This document shows positions 45,842-52,522 of a stretch of DNA of 64,000 nt, in pieces (the stretch's first letter is position 1; each line of letters opens with the position of its first letter). Origin of the DNA: an uncultured Planctomycetales bacterium (GTDB lineage: Bacteria; Omnitrophota; Gorgyraeia; Zapsychrales; Fredricksoniimonadaceae); contig CAZOXU010000008.1 in assembly GCA_964583975.1 (NCBI GenBank), positions 2,745-66,744 of the forward strand, given 5' to 3'. The notes under the pieces are model-generated. The model was given only the letters and a program-made list of their open reading frames with translations. It did not search any database and was not told the origin of the DNA. A program made the translations under genes and the position numbers.

Positions 45842-46102
45842 GTGGCTTTAAAAGTAAGTACGATTGGGAGCATAATTTTACCTTTAGTATATGTGGTTTC
45901 TTTAATCGTTTTTAGAGATCCAGACTTTTTAATATTTATTCTTGGTCCATTAGGTTTTGTTGTTTGGATTGTTCAGCATGTCGGATTTCTTATAGGCAGC
46001 TGGCCCGGGGCAGTAATAGCTACAATGGTGTTTCTTGCTTTAGTTGGCTATTTATTTGGGCGATTTTTAGAGTGGGTCATTAATAAGATACGGCGGAATT
46101 AG
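45842..46102 (+). CDS. Small membrane protein, unknown
   Basis: 86 aa, with three hydrophobic helices. Confidence 0.35.
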   Translation: MALKVSTIGSIILPLVYVVSLIVFRDPDFLIFILGPLGFVVWIVQHVGFLIGSWPGAVIATMVFLALVGYLFGRFLEWVINKIRRN

Positions 46103-46112
46103 GAGTAACAAT

Positions 46113-46289
46113 ATGCCTATTATCAGAAAAGGCGGCGGGCTTTCAGGAAAGATTTGTGATGTGTGTGGGCAGTGGAAAATGCTGGTCGATTTCCCTTTGG
46201 ATCCAAAATCAAAGAAGTTCAAAGGATTTAGACTGCCAACATGTCAGAAATGTTTAAATTTATCAAAGGCACAGCAAAGGCGAAAATAA
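46113..46289 (+). CDS. Small zinc-ribbon-like protein (58 aa), not in the ORF track
   Basis: MPIIRKGGGLSGKICDVCGQWKMLVDFPLDPKSKKFKGFRLPTCQKCLNLSKAQQRRK. Has CxxC...CxxC, a GGAG RBS 7 nt upstream, and fits in the intergenic gap. Confidence 0.4.
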   Translation: MPIIRKGGGLSGKICDVCGQWKMLVDFPLDPKSKKFKGFRLPTCQKCLNLSKAQQRRK

Positions 46290-46305
46290 TTGGAAAGGGG
46301 CAAGT

Positions 46306-46686
46306 ATGATTGGATATGTGACGCTTGGAACGAATAATAAGAAAAAAGCAGAAGCATTTTACGATGAGCTTTTTAAAGAAATAGGTGCCGGGCGATTTAT
46401 GGAAACCGAACAATTTACAGCGTATGCAACGTCACCTGATAAGCCAGGCATTGGGATCACCATTCCTTTTGATGGGAAACCAGCGACCGTTGGTAATGGT
46501 ACCATGGTTGCTCTGTCGGTCGATAGTCCTGAGAAAGTTAATTCGTTTTATAACAAGGCTATTTCTTTAGGCGCCAAAGATGAAGGTAAGCCAGGTCCTC
46601 GTGGGGACAGCGGTTTTTATGCTGCTTATTTTCGTGATTTAGATGGGAATAAATTGAATGTATTTTGTTTTGTGAGTAAGAAATAA
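46306..46686 (+). CDS. VOC / glyoxalase-family protein
   Basis: 126 aa. MIGYVTLGTNNKKKAEAFYDELF is typical of the YecM/glyoxalase-like VOC fold. Confidence 0.65.
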   Translation: MIGYVTLGTNNKKKAEAFYDELFKEIGAGRFMETEQFTAYATSPDKPGIGITIPFDGKPATVGNGTMVALSVDSPEKVNSFYNKAISLGAKDEGKPGPRGDSGFYAAYFRDLDGNKLNVFCFVSKK

Positions 46687-46687
46687 T

Positions 46688-47041
46688 ATGAATGATAACA
46701 AGAGAACGGTTCAACAGTACATGGAAGGTTTTAATGAGCTAGATCACAAGAAGATCTTAGACTGCTTAACCGATGATGTTATCTGGGAGCTTCCGGGCGT
46801 GTTTCATTTAGTTGGCAAAGAAGCTTTTGACAAAGAAATAGAAAATGATGCGTTTACAGGTAAGCCGGTGATTAAGGTGAGTCGTATGGTTGAAGAGAAT
46901 GATGTCGTGGTAGCCGAAGGCACAGTTAAAACACAAAAGAAAACTGGTGAAGTCCTCAATCTCGGGTTTTGTGATGTGTTTGTAATGAGAAAAACTAAAA
47001 TCCAGAAGCTTATTTCGTATTTGATGGAAGTAAAGAAGTAG
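46688..47041 (+). CDS. SnoaL-like / NTF2-like (ketosteroid isomerase-like) protein
   Basis: 117 aa. Pattern TVQQYMEGFNELDHKKILDCLTDDVIWE is typical. Confidence 0.55.
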   Translation: MNDNKRTVQQYMEGFNELDHKKILDCLTDDVIWELPGVFHLVGKEAFDKEIENDAFTGKPVIKVSRMVEENDVVVAEGTVKTQKKTGEVLNLGFCDVFVMRKTKIQKLISYLMEVKK

Positions 47042-47120
47042 GGGCAAAACTGATTAATTAGGTGTCTGTATACCAGCAGGCGTGCCCCTGGAGTTAAATT
47101 TAATCTTAAAGGAGAATACA

Positions 47121-47546
47121 ATGGAAAAGAAAGCAACAGCAGTTTGGCTCGGATCATTAAAAGATGGTAAAGGAATTATTTCAACTGAAAGTGGAGCATT
47201 ATCAAAGGCGCCATATGGTTTTAACACCCGTTTTGAAGGTGTGGCTGGGACTAATCCTGAAGAGCTTATCGGTGCGGCCCATGCTGGATGTTTTTCAATG
47301 GCGCTGTCTGCACAATTATCAAATGCAGGTTTGACTGCCGAAAGAATTGATACGCAAGCAACAGTATCTTTTGAGAAATTAGAACCAGGTTGGACCATTA
47401 CTGGTGTTCATTTGGATGTCAGCGCTGAAGTTCCTGGAGTAGACGCTGCTAAATTTGAAGAAATTGCCAATAACGCTAAAACTGGCTGTCCTATCTCACG
47501 AGTTTTGAATACCAAGATCACAATGACGGCAAAGTTGTTGGAATAA
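47121..47546 (+). CDS. osmC: OsmC/Ohr-family peroxiredoxin-like protein
   Basis: Motif AAHAGCFSMALSAQL (first conserved Cys) and a second Cys in KTGCPISRVL. RBS AAGGAG supports the 47121 start over the track's 47082. Confidence 0.8.
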   Translation: MEKKATAVWLGSLKDGKGIISTESGALSKAPYGFNTRFEGVAGTNPEELIGAAHAGCFSMALSAQLSNAGLTAERIDTQATVSFEKLEPGWTITGVHLDVSAEVPGVDAAKFEEIANNAKTGCPISRVLNTKITMTAKLLE

Positions 47547-47568
47547 GACCTCAAAGAAAGGAAAGTGT

Positions 47569-47682
47569 ATGCGTTATATTCTCGTATTAGTTGCTGTGGT
47601 AGGGTTGATTTCTGGGTGTTGCGGTATGAAAAAGCACTGCCCTGTAGGCTGTACCAAACCTTGCTGTGCTGCACAGAAATAA
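47569..47682 (+). CDS. 37-aa cysteine-rich lipopeptide precursor (signal peptide plus lipobox, mature part with 7 Cys), not in the ORF track
   Basis: MRYILVLVAVVGLISGCCGMKKHCPVGCTKPCCAAQK. RBS AAGGAAAG 7 nt upstream, and an intrinsic terminator immediately downstream. Confidence 0.5.
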   Translation: MRYILVLVAVVGLISGCCGMKKHCPVGCTKPCCAAQK

Positions 47683-47696
47683 GTAAAGCAAATAGG

Positions 47697-47731
47697 AAGG
47701 GGACTGTCCCCTTTTGGGGACTGTCCCTTTC
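47697..47731 (+). terminator. Rho-independent terminator with a duplicated stem (ggggactgtcccc-tttt-ggggactgtccc-ttt)
   Basis: A GC stem-loop followed by a T-run, present in two tandem copies directly after the lipopeptide ORF. Confidence 0.6.
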
Positions 47732-47824
47732 GATTGCTTTCGATTGGTGTAAAGGGCTAGGTAGAAGCGTTCTATATTTCTTACAGGCTATTGACGTGAA
47801 AGAAATAAGGAAAGTGTGTAGATA

Positions 47825-48655
47825 ATGATTATATTTGATAATTTAATTCTTTGGATCGTTCCTCTTGTTATTCTTTTTTATTTTATTTGTTTCTTAATAT
47901 TCATCTGCCCAAGTCTTCGAAAAAAGATAAAAGGGTGCCTTCCTCCCACATGTTTAGCCAAATTTGACAGTGGAGCTTTTCAAGAATCTGTAAGAACGTT
48001 TCTTCCACCAGCATTCTTTACTTTATTAATTGCTTATGCGGTATTTGGTAAAGTAAATTATATTGAAGAAAAGCTTAAGATTGATCTTTTAGCAGAACCA
48101 TGTGTTAATTCTTTGGATAGGGGTAATGGAAAACAATATTGTCTAGATTTTGCAAAGTTAATTTCTGTCCATAAAGATAATTTTTATTTAAATAAATATA
48201 TGATTGTTCAAGTTGAGAAAATTTATGCCAAGGTTTATAAAATGGGCTCAGAAACTCCAATTTATAGAGGAAATCACAAAGATACGAATGGAAATGACAT
48301 TTTAATTAGAGAAGAGGTTAACAATCTTAATTTGAGCAATATTTATGATCATTTAGGGCATTCTTTTTGGCGAAGTAGAATGGCTGCTTGTTATTTGTTG
48401 TCTGGAATTAATAATGATTTGATTAATAAACCCTTATCAGAAATTAAATGGAAAGATATATTGGGAAAATTAGTAAACTTAATAAAAGATAAAAATGAAG
48501 AGTTTGAGGTTAGGTTAATGGCTCAAATGACTTACGCGAGGTTAACTAACTTGGGAGTCCATCTTACTGAAGATGTCTTTGGGTTTGATTGGTTGGTGAA
48601 AGATTGGGACAAGAATTCAGATATAATTATAAAAAGATTGGAAAAGGAGAAATAG
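47825..48655 (+). CDS. Hypothetical membrane-anchored protein encoded by a markedly AT-rich gene
   Basis: 276 aa with an N-terminal TM helix. Codon composition is visibly more A/T-rich than its neighbours. No recognisable domain. Confidence 0.45.
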   Translation: MIIFDNLILWIVPLVILFYFICFLIFICPSLRKKIKGCLPPTCLAKFDSGAFQESVRTFLPPAFFTLLIAYAVFGKVNYIEEKLKIDLLAEPCVNSLDRGNGKQYCLDFAKLISVHKDNFYLNKYMIVQVEKIYAKVYKMGSETPIYRGNHKDTNGNDILIREEVNNLNLSNIYDHLGHSFWRSRMAACYLLSGINNDLINKPLSEIKWKDILGKLVNLIKDKNEEFEVRLMAQMTYARLTNLGVHLTEDVFGFDWLVKDWDKNSDIIIKRLEKEK

Positions 48656-48705
48656 GGTAATATTCTAGATTTTTTTAGAAAGAAATAATGAATAAAATAT
48701 TTCTT

Positions 48706-48757
48706 GAAACCTACGGCTGGCCCTTACAGATTCCTTTGGAATCTAAGCGTAGGGGTT
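48706..48757. repeat. Hairpin repeat, family C copy 1
   Basis: gaaacctacggctggcccttacagattcctttggaatctaagcgtaggggt. CCTACG pairs with CGTAGG, and the inner arm is AGATTCC / GGAATCT. Confidence 0.6.
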
Positions 48758-48764
48758 ATAGCAA

Positions 48765-49037
48765 TTGATGGATAGACATGGTAAATTTTATGTATATATT
48801 ATCGAAGACAAAAATGGGACATATTACACTGGTTACACTCAAGATGTTCAGAAACGATTAGAGTTACATCAAAAAGGTCAGGGGGCTAAGTATTTGAGAG
48901 GTAAAATGCCATTGAAGTTGGTATATGTTAAGGAATACCGATATTATAAATTAGCACTGCATGCGGAATTAAAAATTAAAAGCTATACACGAGAGAGAAA
49001 AGAAGAGCTAGTGAGAATATATGAAAATAGTAAATAA
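48765..49037 (+). CDS. GIY-YIG nuclease-family protein (short UPF0213/YhbQ-like)
   Basis: Motif KFYVYIIEDKNGTYYTGYTQDVQKRLELH is the GIY...YIG signature. 90 aa. Confidence 0.75.
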   Translation: MMDRHGKFYVYIIEDKNGTYYTGYTQDVQKRLELHQKGQGAKYLRGKMPLKLVYVKEYRYYKLALHAELKIKSYTRERKEELVRIYENSK

Positions 49038-49040
49038 TCA

Positions 49041-49095
49041 GAAACCTACGGCTGCCCCCACAGATTTGCTGAAAGCAAATCTAAGCGTGGGGGCA
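49041..49095. repeat. Hairpin repeat, family C copy 2
   Basis: gaaacctacggctgcccccacagatttgctgaaagcaaatctaagcgtgggggc. Same flanks as copy 1, with compensatory changes in the stems. Confidence 0.6.
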
Positions 49096-49098
49096 CCC

Positions 49099-50424
49099 AT
49101 GCTTATGTTTCCAGAAAAACCGAAGGTTTTCCTGGAAACATATGGGTGTGCCATGAATGAGTACGACTCCGAACTCATTCGTTCGATTCTCAAGAAAGAG
49201 AACTTTGAGTTCGTGCCCCGCGAGAAAGAGGCAGACATTGTCATGCTCAACACCTGCGCCATTCGTGAGCATGCGCACAGGAAGATCTACGGCCGTGTGC
49301 ATCAGCTGCGCCATGATCGAAAGGGCAAGCCCATCATGATTGGTTTGCTTGGCTGCATGGTGACCAACCTACGCCAGGAACTCCTAGAAGATCGGTCGCT
49401 TAAGATCGACTTCATTGCCGGGCCAGACTCGTATAAGCGTCTGCCGGATTTGATCCGCGAGGCGACTGATGATGGCGCCAAAGGTTATGATGCTACTTTA
49501 AGCGAGTTTGAAACCTATTCTGATATTACCCCGAGCCGTAAAGAAGGCATCAATGCCTGGATCGCCATCATGCGCGGCTGCAACAATTTCTGCACCTTCT
49601 GTGTGGTGCCTTACACCCGTGGCCGCGAACGTAGCCGGGATCCAAAGAATATAGTTGAGGAAGTCGAGCGGCTCGCTGCCGAGGGCTTCAAGCAGGTGAC
49701 CTTGCTGGGGCAGAACGTGAATTCCTACCGCTATGAAGACTATGATTTTGCTTATCTGATGGAAGAAGTTGCTAAGGTCAAGGGCATTGAGCGCATTCGT
49801 TTCACCTCACCGCATCCTAAGGACTATCCCGATCGATTCTTAGATGTCATGGCCAGTAACCCCAAGGTCTGCAAAAGCATTCATATCCCGCTGCAGGCTG
49901 GCAATAACAGGGTGCTTGGGCTTATGGATCGCTCGTACACTAAGGAGGAGTTTTTGGCTCTCGCCGATAAGATGAAAAAACGAATCCCAGGCGTGACCCT
50001 GACAACCGATATTATCGTAGGCTTTCCCACCGAAACCGATGAAGAGTTTGAAGATACCCTTGATGTGGTCCAGAAAGTCCAGTTTGACGTGGCTTTTACC
50101 TTTAAATACTCCGAGCGTAAAGGTACCATTGCCGCTAAGAAATACCCTGATGATGTCTCTGAGGAAACCAAGACCCAGCGTATTATGCGTTTAATTGAGA
50201 TCCAGCGAGCCATCACCTTGAAGAACAATCAGGGCTATATCGGCCGAGTTTGCGATATCTTGATTGAGCCAGCCTTGGGTGAGAATGCTCAAAACAATGT
50301 GGTTGGGCGTACCGATGGCAACCACCTGGTCATTCTGCCACAAGGACCCTATAAAATAGGCGACACCATCAAGGCGCGCATCACGGACGCCACCCCGCAT
50401 GTACTTAAAGCCATCCCAGTATAA
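49099..50424 (+). CDS. miaB: tRNA methylthiotransferase (MiaB/RimO family; radical SAM plus TRAM)
   Basis: N-terminal FLETYGCAMNEYDSE, radical-SAM motif CNNFCTFCVVP, C-terminal TRAM domain. The 49099 start is preferred because 49021-49098 is occupied by the repeat. The gene is visibly GC-richer than the rest of the window. Confidence 0.85.
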   Translation: MLMFPEKPKVFLETYGCAMNEYDSELIRSILKKENFEFVPREKEADIVMLNTCAIREHAHRKIYGRVHQLRHDRKGKPIMIGLLGCMVTNLRQELLEDRSLKIDFIAGPDSYKRLPDLIREATDDGAKGYDATLSEFETYSDITPSRKEGINAWIAIMRGCNNFCTFCVVPYTRGRERSRDPKNIVEEVERLAAEGFKQVTLLGQNVNSYRYEDYDFAYLMEEVAKVKGIERIRFTSPHPKDYPDRFLDVMASNPKVCKSIHIPLQAGNNRVLGLMDRSYTKEEFLALADKMKKRIPGVTLTTDIIVGFPTETDEEFEDTLDVVQKVQFDVAFTFKYSERKGTIAAKKYPDDVSEETKTQRIMRLIEIQRAITLKNNQGYIGRVCDILIEPALGENAQNNVVGRTDGNHLVILPQGPYKIGDTIKARITDATPHVLKAIPV

Positions 50425-50550: not shown

Positions 50551-51120
50551 ATGAATGACGAAGAACTCATAGTGAAGTTCTACCAAGACGACAAGGAGGC
50601 GCTCGACATGCTGTTTAAGCGTCATAAGGAAGGACTGTTCAATTTTGCTCTGCGGCTAACAGTCAATCGCGCTGATGCCGAAGATGCAGTTAGCCATTCC
50701 TTTATGACTGTCTGTGAGCGCAAATATCAGCCTGTGGCTGGGGCTAGTTTTAAGACCTGGCTTTATACGGTGGCTCGCAATTCCTGTCTTTCTAAATTTC
50801 GTCATCAGAATAAATTCTTTTCCTTATGGTCATCGAAAGATACCGAAGAAACCCAGCCGATTGATGTTGCCGACACCAAGCAATCAGCAAGTGACCATTT
50901 AAATCAGCAAGAATTATCAGCTATTGTCCAAAAAGCAGTACACCGATTGCCGGTAGAGCAAAAAGAAGCTTTATTGTTAAGAGAATATCATGGTTTTAGT
51001 TATGAAGAAATCGCCCAGGTCCTTGATTGTTCATTAGAAAAGGTTAAGGTGCTGATATTCCGTGCGCGTAATCAACTTAAAACTCTGCTTCCACCTGTGG
51101 TGCTAGAGGAGGGAAGGTAA
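50551..51120 (+). CDS. ECF-subfamily RNA polymerase sigma factor
   Basis: Sigma-70 region 2 (FNFALRLTVNRADAEDAVSHSF...TWLYTVARN) and region 4 (EYHGFSYEEIAQVL). Confidence 0.85.
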   Translation: MNDEELIVKFYQDDKEALDMLFKRHKEGLFNFALRLTVNRADAEDAVSHSFMTVCERKYQPVAGASFKTWLYTVARNSCLSKFRHQNKFFSLWSSKDTEETQPIDVADTKQSASDHLNQQELSAIVQKAVHRLPVEQKEALLLREYHGFSYEEIAQVLDCSLEKVKVLIFRARNQLKTLLPPVVLEEGR

Positions 51121-51121
51121 T

Positions 51122-52522
51122 ATGACCCACGAAAATATTAAAATCCTCATTTCTGCTTACCTCGATGGTGAAACAACACCATCTGAGAAAATACAAGTCG
51201 AAGAACATTTATCCTCCTGTGCCGAATGCCAGAAGGAGTATCAAACGTATAAGGCCATGTCTAACTCTCTCTCGAAATGGTCTAATGAACGTCTCTCTCC
51301 GGATGAAGAAATCAAGATTCATAACCACCTTCAACGAAGGAGAGAACCTATGTTTACAAAACGTAACCTCATGGCATTAGGAACAACCTTGGCATTAACC
51401 ATTATGATTGGAAGTGTAGTGCAGCAGTACACGTCAAAGAGTTATTTTGTTGGCAGAAAAGATGCATCGACAGCAGCAACTGTAGCTCGGAGTAGTTTGA
51501 TATCGACTAAGGAATATGAACCTTATTATAAAAGCGAAACGCTTGCACTTAAAGGAGAAGCTAGTACATATGCTCCTGCTATGGCTAAGGCGCAGGTATT
51601 TGACGCTGTACAGCCAGAAAGCGCATCTAATCAAGCTATGGATGCTGTCCAAAGAAAAAATATGGCCAAAGTACAAGCTCTATTTTTGAATGCGGCTCGA
51701 CAACAAAATAGGGGTGCAGCAGCAGTTGCTTTGAAATCCGCTAATAATTATTATCAAGGTAATGGAGCTGGAACTAGCTATGCAGGAGGGGTTGCTGCTT
51801 ATTATGATGTCGATGAACAAGATCGTAAAAAGATTCAAAGGGCAGGTTTGAGCCTGCAAGTTGAAAATGCCTTTAAAACAAAGTCTCAACTAACAGAATT
51901 AATGACGCAATTGAATGCCATTATCGTGAGTTCCCAATTTAATCGATCTCCTGATGGACCAGGGTATGGTGTGATGGTCTGTAAGGTGTATCCCAAAGAC
52001 TTAGAACCAGCCTTGCAGCAGATTAGAAAGTTGGGCGAGGTAGAAAATGAAAATCAAAGTTTAATGGATGTCACTGATCAGTATGCTGATGCTCACAAGA
52101 ACATGGCTCAATACCGATCTGATAAAGAACGTTTGGAAAAGTCCTTAAATAATTTTAAGCTCTTTAATCCAACAACAGATGCTGAAAAACAAAATATCCA
52201 ACAGCAAATTGAGCATACTCAAGAGCAGCTTAAAGCGCTCGAGCGTGTGATTCATTTTTACCAAGAACAAACCCAGATGAGTTTGGTGACGATTGATTAT
52301 CATGATAATTATAAAACAGTCGTTAAAGATAAAGAGGTCACTGTACAATGGAAAGAGAGACTAGCTGACAAATGGAAAACAACCGTTGATGCTTCAGTCG
52401 ATGTGTTTACTAATATTTTGTTTTCTAGCCTCGTATTGCTTTCTTATGTGGCTCCCATATTAATTTGGGTGATTGTTTTTATTATCTTGTTTTCGATTGT
52501 CCGGTTGTTTTTTAGAAAATAA
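51122..52522 (+). CDS. Putative anti-sigma factor (zinc-finger type N-terminus, TM helix, large coiled-coil extracytoplasmic domain, C-terminal TM)
   Basis: HLSSCAECQKEY matches the HxxxCxxC anti-sigma zinc motif. Starts 2 nt after the ECF sigma stop. TM segments at about 85-105 and at the C-terminus. Confidence 0.5.
   Translation: MTHENIKILISAYLDGETTPSEKIQVEEHLSSCAECQKEYQTYKAMSNSLSKWSNERLSPDEEIKIHNHLQRRREPMFTKRNLMALGTTLALTIMIGSVVQQYTSKSYFVGRKDASTAATVARSSLISTKEYEPYYKSETLALKGEASTYAPAMAKAQVFDAVQPESASNQAMDAVQRKNMAKVQALFLNAARQQNRGAAAVALKSANNYYQGNGAGTSYAGGVAAYYDVDEQDRKKIQRAGLSLQVENAFKTKSQLTELMTQLNAIIVSSQFNRSPDGPGYGVMVCKVYPKDLEPALQQIRKLGEVENENQSLMDVTDQYADAHKNMAQYRSDKERLEKSLNNFKLFNPTTDAEKQNIQQQIEHTQEQLKALERVIHFYQEQTQMSLVTIDYHDNYKTVVKDKEVTVQWKERLADKWKTTVDASVDVFTNILFSSLVLLSYVAPILIWVIVFIILFSIVRLFFRK

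Follow-up and report, generated by a model that had tools for sequence, protein, structure and literature searches.

An unannotated 37-residue cysteine-rich lipopeptide gene behind osmC in an Omnitrophota genome and its candidate role as a metallothionein-like metal binder of the cell envelope

We have analysed a stretch of 64,000 nucleotides from an uncultured bacterium of the phylum Omnitrophota (contig CAZOXU010000008.1 of assembly GCA_964583975.1, positions 2,745 to 66,744; referred to as the window), in which a very short gene at 47569..47682 on the plus strand, directly behind the osmC gene, encodes a cysteine-rich peptide of 37 residues. It is virtually certain that this open reading frame (ORF) is a real gene, and its features suggest, with a probability that we would put at about 0.6, that the product is a membrane-tethered, periplasm-facing, metallothionein-like binder of a thiophilic metal. 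According to this idea, the precursor would be exported by the Sec system, modified with diacylglyceryl at Cys17 and cut by signal peptidase II (SPII), leaving a peptide of 21 residues tethered to the periplasmic side of the membrane. The five remaining thiols, i.e. C18 and those of a C-x3-C-x3-CC module, may then bind a thiophilic metal in a thiolate site or cluster, and the lipid-anchored, single-module, metallothionein-like peptide might serve as an envelope metal buffer or as a hand-off point. The gene probably follows osmC as the final member of a small operon of stress genes, whose transcript would end at a strong hairpin. That the peptide is lipidated, that it binds a metal, which metal this is, and that it shares a transcript with osmC are inferences.

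The coding sequence consists of 37 codons and a stop codon, runs from ATG to TAA, and specifies the product MRYILVLVAVVGLISGCCGMKKHCPVGCTKPCCAAQK. The ATG at 47569 is the earliest start codon downstream of an in-frame stop, and it is preceded by a Shine-Dalgarno-like sequence (Table 1). A first-pass annotation of this DNA had proposed the reading frame with its translation, a ribosome-binding site of its own, and a distance of 22 nucleotides between the osmC stop codon and the ATG, and all of this was reproduced from the sequence; the seven cysteines that it had counted are in fact six (positions 17, 18, 24, 28, 32 and 33). The gene is overlapped by ORFs of 86 residues on the plus strand and of 88 residues on the minus strand. 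The former lies in another frame at 47565..47825 and competes with the peptide gene in the ORF list, as had been pointed out before.

The peptide is conserved in relatives: A phmmer search with the 37 residues against 1.84 billion cluster representatives yielded nine proteins at E<=1e-3, led by one that likewise has 37 residues and is 78% identical (E 7.1e-13), and a profile built from these matches (A1) recovered 38 proteins from a collection of 5.8 billion sequences. The homologs have 37 to 70 residues and originate from metagenomes and from metagenome-assembled genomes of Candidatus Omnitrophota, the latter being the source of the annotated homolog P0003. A metagenome scan with the family profile gave six loci. 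Across twelve short members of the family (37-70 residues), M1, R2, G16, C17, C18, K21, C24, C28, K30, P31, C32 and C33 are invariant. Selection on the frame was assessed by pairwise Nei-Gojobori counts for the four loci with DNA (the window, L087, L082 and L085). Between the window and L087, L082 and L085, the proportions of synonymous differences (pS) were 0.83, 0.95 and 0.74, and those of nonsynonymous differences (pN) 0.11, 0.25 and 0.23, respectively. All pairs among the four loci behaved alike, with saturated pS values of 0.74-0.95 and pN values of 0.11-0.30. Synonymous and nonsynonymous rates are thus unequal, and the peptide frame is under strong purifying selection. Since pN is far below pS in this frame, the two overlapping ORFs can be ruled out as the coding frame. 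Moreover, AAAGGAG, GAGAGGAG or AAAAGGAG is located 5-8 nucleotides before the ATG in L087, L082 and L085, so that all four loci with DNA have a Shine-Dalgarno sequence, and a textbook terminator stands behind the copy in L082. On an identical Logan contig (L081), which was reached through MiaB, the gene caller skipped the peptide ORF, and neither the exact peptide sequence nor the exact OsmC sequence has a record in the public gene-call collection; the earlier statement that the gene is unannotated thus holds. The peptide ORF is a concrete case of the sub-40-codon genes that are systematically missed even though they are under strong selection.

The product is very likely the precursor of an SPII lipoprotein. 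We applied a rule in the style of PROSITE PS51257, i.e. a basic residue among the first seven, an uncharged hydrophobic core, a lipobox of the form [LVI][ASTVI][GAS]C, and this cysteine at position 15-35. With R2, the hydrophobic core listed in Table 1 and I-S-G-C17, the peptide has all these elements, in agreement with the Sec/SPII signal ending in a lipobox that had been described before, and the same is true for 12/12 members of the short family, in which the lipobox plus a second cysteine (xGC-C) is invariant. Three other ORFs in the window bear clear lipoboxes, indicating that the organism uses the lipoprotein pathway. The predicted mature part is basic, has six cysteines (29%), and contains no F, W or Y. 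Its cysteines are arranged in two CC pairs and two Cx3C spacings (C24-C28 and C28-C32), and five thiols would be left once C17 is lipidated. AlphaFold, run on an alignment of twelve sequences, predicted a helix for the signal peptide only, and the mature part is without a confident fold (mean predicted local distance difference test score 63.5). The absence of a confident apo-fold would fit a peptide that folds only around its ligand, though it is uninformative by itself.

The centre of the mature peptide is formed by a module of eleven residues that is not confined to the short family. We found 105 strict instances of the module in 62 retrieved proteins, with the consensus C-[PG]-[PA]-[DG]-C-T-K-P-C-C-A across proteins and the core form C-x-x-[GD]-C-T-K-P-C-C-A. 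About 50 of the proteins that carry it are outside of the short family; they are mostly lipobox-bearing, and usually one to four tandem copies stand behind the lipoprotein signal. The strict lipobox rule holds for at least 40 of the 62 proteins; in most of the others, [AGS]C comes after a hydrophobic segment. In the polypeptides with additional domains, an N-terminal lipobox is followed by one to three modules and then by YHS, by HMBD and YHS, or by HMA. Fusions to a C-terminal YHS domain (PF04945) are repeated and were observed in P0030, P0162, P0165, P0166, P0171 (Planctomycetota), P0176 and the ORF at 4-468 of the locus L097, whereas those to HMBD (PF19335, E 4.6e-13; the same L097 ORF) and to a CopZ/MerP-type HMA domain with MTCEGC (PF00403, E 1.6e-12; an ORF of L096) occur once each. 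In addition, His-rich tracts accompany the module in P0024, P0031, P0170 and the L097 ORF at 481-825. The presence of the module in the same polypeptides as YHS, HMBD and HMA domains suggests that CxxxCTKPCC may be an accessory metal-capture module. The peptide matches no Pfam family at E<=1 and no NCBIfam model, the multi-module proteins have no Pfam or NCBIfam match beyond the partner domains, with the module outside of those Pfam models, and the family profile hit no chain among the PDB sequences at E<=10. The first-pass annotation could not place the peptide in a known family, and according to our searches it belongs to no curated one. The CTKPCC string and its variants were absent from the full text of about 8 million papers, and the literature searched contained no description of a lipobox-bearing metallothionein and no paper that combines YHS domains, lipoproteins and copper.

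Two adjacent lipoprotein genes of L097 (4-468 and 481-825) both encode CTKPCC modules; one product has HMBD and YHS and the other a His-rich tract and CCGxxPxxCC, and the pair has the look of a small gene cluster for lipoproteins that bind metals. On two contigs from marine metagenomes (L094 and L095, 1709-4699), the module occurs in an unusual setting: A membrane H+-pyrophosphatase-like protein has a C-terminal extension that contains CCPPGCTKPCCA, further Cys-rich stretches and an OmpA-like domain.

Which metal might be bound? Cu(I) is our favoured guess, since the YHS and HMBD domains, CopRS-like regulators and SodC point to copper. The regulators belong to the neighbourhood of P0003 from Omnitrophota, where a response regulator and a kinase resembling a CopRS/CusRS-like two-component system are encoded 175 nucleotides downstream, and P0012, a relative with three modules, is located 65 nucleotides upstream of the gene for the Cu/Zn superoxide dismutase. 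The first-pass annotation had proposed that the peptide buffers metals or oxidants in the envelope. The metal role is backed by the fusions to YHS, HMBD, HMA and His-rich tracts and by the CopRS-like neighbour of P0003, and the composition of the peptide (29% Cys, CC and Cx3C spacing, no aromatic residues) speaks for it as well; the functional link to OsmC found no support.

Several points weigh against a metal-binding role as outlined here. The evidence for a function is throughout one of association. The fusions were found in more distant relatives with several modules (profile matches at E 1e-4 to 1e-13) and not in the 37-residue peptide. The regulators next to P0003 have their first-ranking matches just under the curated cutoffs: The response regulator reaches 265 bits with TIGR01387 (cztR_silR_copR; cutoff 279) and the kinase 262 bits with TIGR01386 (cztS_silS_copS; cutoff 292.6), in each case the best NCBIfam model. 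The neighbourhoods as a whole are heterogeneous (OsmC; GFA-domain proteins at P0001 and P0010; TerC at P0004; enolase/DivIC and a tRNA at P0006; AraC/nitroreductase at P0015), and there is no metal-resistance operon among them. Moreover, Hg, Cd, Zn or As(III) would suit the vicinal CC pairs and the HMA partner just as well, and the sequence cannot decide among the metals. The cysteines might also form disulfides in the oxidising periplasm rather than bind a metal. Finally, the hairpin at which the operon would end has a weak U-tract and no canonical U-run.

Taking the short peptide and the larger proteins together, we see an even chance that CxxxCTKPCC is an extracytoplasmic metal-binding module in its own right that had escaped recognition, and that the 37-residue peptide is its minimal form, a lipid-anchored, single-module "periplasmic metallothionein". 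Lipoproteins from Omnitrophota, Planctomycetota and Bacteroidota as well as from further uncultured lineages would then contain the module as one to four tandem units, alone or before YHS, HMBD or HMA. What is new here is the sequence family with its module, and the topology would be new for a metallothionein-like peptide; Cys-rich metal buffering as such is already known. If this idea is true, it would add an easily synthesised metal-binding module of eleven residues to bacterial metal homeostasis, and it would show that a lipid anchor can bring metallothionein-like buffering to the periplasmic side of a membrane. The Omnitrophota are a phylum with few cultured representatives, and the idea would offer a first clue to what one of their conserved micro-proteins does. 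The practical value would lie in annotation, by a hidden Markov model of the module, and possibly in the design of metal-capture peptides; no concept would be overturned.

The position of the gene suggests a different interpretation, namely that the peptide is a thiol-based oxidant buffer or a redox partner of OsmC that scavenges peroxides or recycles OsmC. The upstream gene does encode an OsmC-family protein, as had been claimed (TIGR03562 above its cutoff, and PF02566), and both catalytic cysteine contexts are readable in its translation (AHAGCFSM and KTGCPISR). The two genes are on the same strand, only the 22 nucleotides and no terminator lie between them, and the surrounding 7-kb stretch is rich in stress and detoxification functions, with a run of small genes from 41.1 to 48.7 kb that comprises two SRPBCC/AHSA1 genes, DUF892, UDG, glyoxalase, SnoaL and OsmC; one relative (P0012) adjoins SodC. 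However, OsmC lacks a signal peptide and would thus stay in the cytoplasm, whereas the peptide would leave it, which makes a direct thiol-redox partnership unlikely. Moreover, osmC is present in 0/6 homolog neighbourhoods. Conversely, no CTKPCC ORF was found within about 4 kb of osmC in any of 80 osmC loci, which served as a negative control and encode OsmC relatives of 58-68% identity from diverse and unrelated phyla (e.g. Acidobacteriota and Pseudomonas). Even the closest relative (L088, with a MiaB that is 93% identical) is without both genes at the locus. The functional link to OsmC that had been suggested is not supported by these data, and the pairing with osmC is not conserved in relatives. 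The osmC gene is probably the upstream operon partner of the peptide gene, the adjacency is incidental, and we regard the peptide as very improbable as an oxidant buffer or redox partner working with OsmC. Another possibility would be a cis-acting leader of the CutF/CruR/CopL type, in which a nascent exported peptide with a Cys motif senses periplasmic metal during its translation and controls the downstream gene. CutF-like proteins are defined by a signal peptide, CxxxC, a C-terminal proline-rich motif and a position directly upstream of a metal-homeostasis gene, and the peptide resembles these DUF2946 leaders in being small, Sec-exported and equipped with CxxxC (PMC9973294). Some homologs have another gene close behind them (GFA at 20-66 nucleotides, SodC at 65 nucleotides), and a strong hairpin is present 3' of the ORF in the window. 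In contrast to the CutF-like leaders, the peptide ends in ...PCCAAQK without a proline-rich stalling motif, it does not match DUF2946, and it has an invariant lipobox where most CutF-like proteins have a signal peptidase I site (PMC9973294). Its gene probably also comes last in an operon, ahead of a hairpin. Behind the copies in the window and in L082, there is a terminator-like hairpin and the next gene is 140-175 nucleotides away, and the downstream genes are mostly unrelated to metal homeostasis, including the 276-residue ORF of the window. A leader function therefore seems quite improbable to us.

Disulfide formation is at the heart of a further explanation. The OmcA protein of the Chlamydiae is Cys-rich, with a cysteine directly after the lipidated one, and the peptide could likewise be a structural envelope lipopeptide whose thiols cross-link by disulfides and rigidify the envelope without binding metal. 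This would fit the second cysteine right after the lipobox (GC-C), the high cysteine density, and the odd number of five free thiols, which leaves one for an intermolecular bond; Omnitrophota are also commonly grouped with or near the Planctomycetes-Verrucomicrobia-Chlamydiae superphylum, the home of the Chlamydiae. We consider this explanation as unlikely, because the peptide matches neither Chlam_OMP3 nor any other Pfam family at E<=1, no OmcB-like partner gene is found nearby, and a purely structural role leaves the fusions to YHS, HMBD, HMA and His-rich tracts unexplained. A short, Cys-rich ORF with a radical-SAM gene 1.3 kb downstream might also bring to mind the precursor of a ribosomally synthesised and post-translationally modified peptide (RiPP) or bacteriocin (e.g. 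SCIFF-like) with modified cysteines, or else an ORF that arose by chance, but both are hardly credible. With its UPF0004, Radical_SAM and TRAM domains and 93% identity to orthologs, the radical-SAM protein turned out to be a canonical MiaB, and the RiPP idea was dropped for this reason; furthermore, its gene is unlinked to the peptide in every homolog locus, and RiPP leaders do not take the form of a conserved lipobox. A chance ORF is excluded by the homology (E 7e-13) and by pN values far below pS.

The features of the gene and its surroundings are compiled in Table 1. For the region behind the peptide gene, a terminator in the form of a tandem duplicate had been claimed. Two copies of a palindromic unit are indeed present; however, they pair with each other as one hairpin with a weak U-tract. 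The hairpin stretch of 81 nucleotides has a folding energy of -36.4 kcal/mol (z -5.5 compared to shuffled sequences), and its arms are 88% complementary. The tract UUUCGAUUGCUUUCGAUUGG behind the hairpin (tail GATTGCTTTCGATTGG) stays below five T in eight positions on the plus strand, and the scan reported a site on the minus strand only. The palindromic unit was found nowhere else in the window, and Rfam gave no match in 46000-49200. The hairpin is terminator-like, not canonical. An identical 11-mer, AAGGAAAGTGT, stands before the start of the peptide gene (47558-47568) and before the start region of the next ORF (47807-47817), which is located at 47825-48655, encodes the protein of 276 residues with hydrophobic segments at its N-terminus, and has no family match.

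Table 1. Features of the peptide gene and its surroundings, and the intervals upstream of miaB in three genomes (positions of L088 and L089 refer to these loci)
Feature	Position	Strand	Description
osmC	47121..47546	+	OsmC-family peroxiredoxin, 141 residues; TIGR03562 E 6.8e-59, 197.8 bits vs cutoff 85.8; PF02566
Shine-Dalgarno-like sequence	47558..47565	+	AAGGAAAG, identified from sequence; GGA core 6 nucleotides 5' of the ATG
Predicted SPII signal peptide, residues 1-16	47569..47616	+	n-region M-R, h-region YILVLVAVVGL, lipobox I-S-G before C17
Predicted mature lipopeptide, 21 residues	47617..47679	+	CCGMKKHCPVGCTKPCCAAQK; C17 is the predicted acylation site
Module	47638..47670	+	C24-P-V-G-C28-T-K-P-C32-C33-A34; invariant columns in alignments A1 and A2
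Hairpin	47696-47711/47716-47731	+	16-nucleotide arms, 4-nucleotide loop; formed by the palindromic unit GGGGACTGTCCC(C), present twice
Direct 10-nucleotide repeat	47727..47746	+	CTTTCGATTG twice; U-rich tail after the hairpin
miaB-upstream interval, window	~46300-49020		glyoxalase, SnoaL, osmC, peptide, 276-residue protein without family match, GIY-YIG
miaB-upstream interval, L088	6100-8000		OmdA, SnoaL, DUF1428, 66-residue ORF, ParE-like gene
miaB-upstream interval, L089	6000-8000		START, RRM, DUF1761

The MiaB protein (49021-50424) has its nearest relatives in Candidatus Omnitrophica/Omnitrophota, the best one being 93% identical (GCA_044225175.1), and it gave access to two orthologous loci, L088 in the 93% relative and L089 in a 77% relative. 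Downstream of miaB, nadA and the genes for a hydrolase and a methyltransferase are syntenic among the window, L088 and L089. In both relatives, osmC and the peptide gene are missing from the interval upstream of miaB; as osmC is missing too, these loci do not count as a loss of the ORF between conserved flanks. Since this interval differs in all three genomes, we assign osmC and the peptide gene to a variable accessory stretch. The interval appears as a hotspot of accessory genes related to stress, toxin-antitoxin systems or GIY-YIG in these related Omnitrophota genomes. At 46113-46289 on the plus strand of the window, an ORF of 58 residues, MPIIRKGGGLSGKICDVCGQWKMLVDFPLDPKSKKFKGFRLPTCQKCLNLSKAQQRRK, encodes a CxxC...CxxC protein that resembles a zinc ribbon and has no Pfam match; it is 83% identical at the amino acid level to an uncalled stretch of L088 (6114-6290) and probably represents a second conserved, unannotated gene for a small protein with four cysteines. 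The stretch directly downstream of miaB (50551-52522) encodes a sigma factor of the ECF type together with a zf-HC2 anti-sigma factor that contains DUF4349. This pair is kept in L089, and the closer relative L088 has a prepilin-type N-methyl protein instead.

How does the peptide compare to known systems? The known bacterial metallothioneins, SmtA/BmtA and mycobacterial MymT, are cytosolic, and the roles of metallothioneins include metal buffering as well as defence against oxidative stress (PMC7558416). In its composition, the mature peptide agrees with the metallothionein functional class (low mass, 15-30% Cys, motifs of the CC/CxC/CxxC type, few or no aromatic residues): It is very small, has about 30% Cys in CC and CxnC motifs and no aromatic residues, and no stable apo-fold is predicted. 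Unlike metallothioneins, it matches no Pfam metallothionein family (Metallothio*, SmtA/BmtA PF02069) at E<=1 and nothing in the PDB, and in contrast to the cytosolic bacterial representatives it has an SPII signal, is predicted to be lipid-anchored outside of the cytoplasm, and contains one 4-Cys module plus one extra cysteine. A homology to human MT2A (CPVGCAK) was considered and dropped, since the local match PVGC[T/A]K covers only six residues, five of them identical, with a pairwise E value of 0.019. As a tiny SPII lipoprotein, the peptide resembles chlamydial OmcA and the enterobacterial entericidins with their mature parts of about 20-27 residues. It has no sequence similarity to either of them; the role of OmcA is a structural one based on disulfides, without a known association with metal-binding domains, and the entericidins have no cysteine beyond the anchor. 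Among the extracytoplasmic proteins, Csp1 is a Tat-exported four-helix bundle that stores copper, and NosL is a copper chaperone with a folded domain that is anchored through its lipobox cysteine (PMC7558416). With NosL, the PCuAC/SenC-type chaperones and Csp1, the peptide would share the presumed handling of a thiophilic metal outside of the cytoplasm, and with NosL also the lipobox anchor; those proteins are, however, folded domains of 15-20 kDa or a four-helix bundle, whereas the peptide has 21 residues and neither sequence nor fold similarity to them. There is also a connection to the YHS, HMBD and HMA proteins: The window peptide itself is without these domains, and it has in common with these proteins the CxxxCTKPCC module, which they carry in the same polypeptide.

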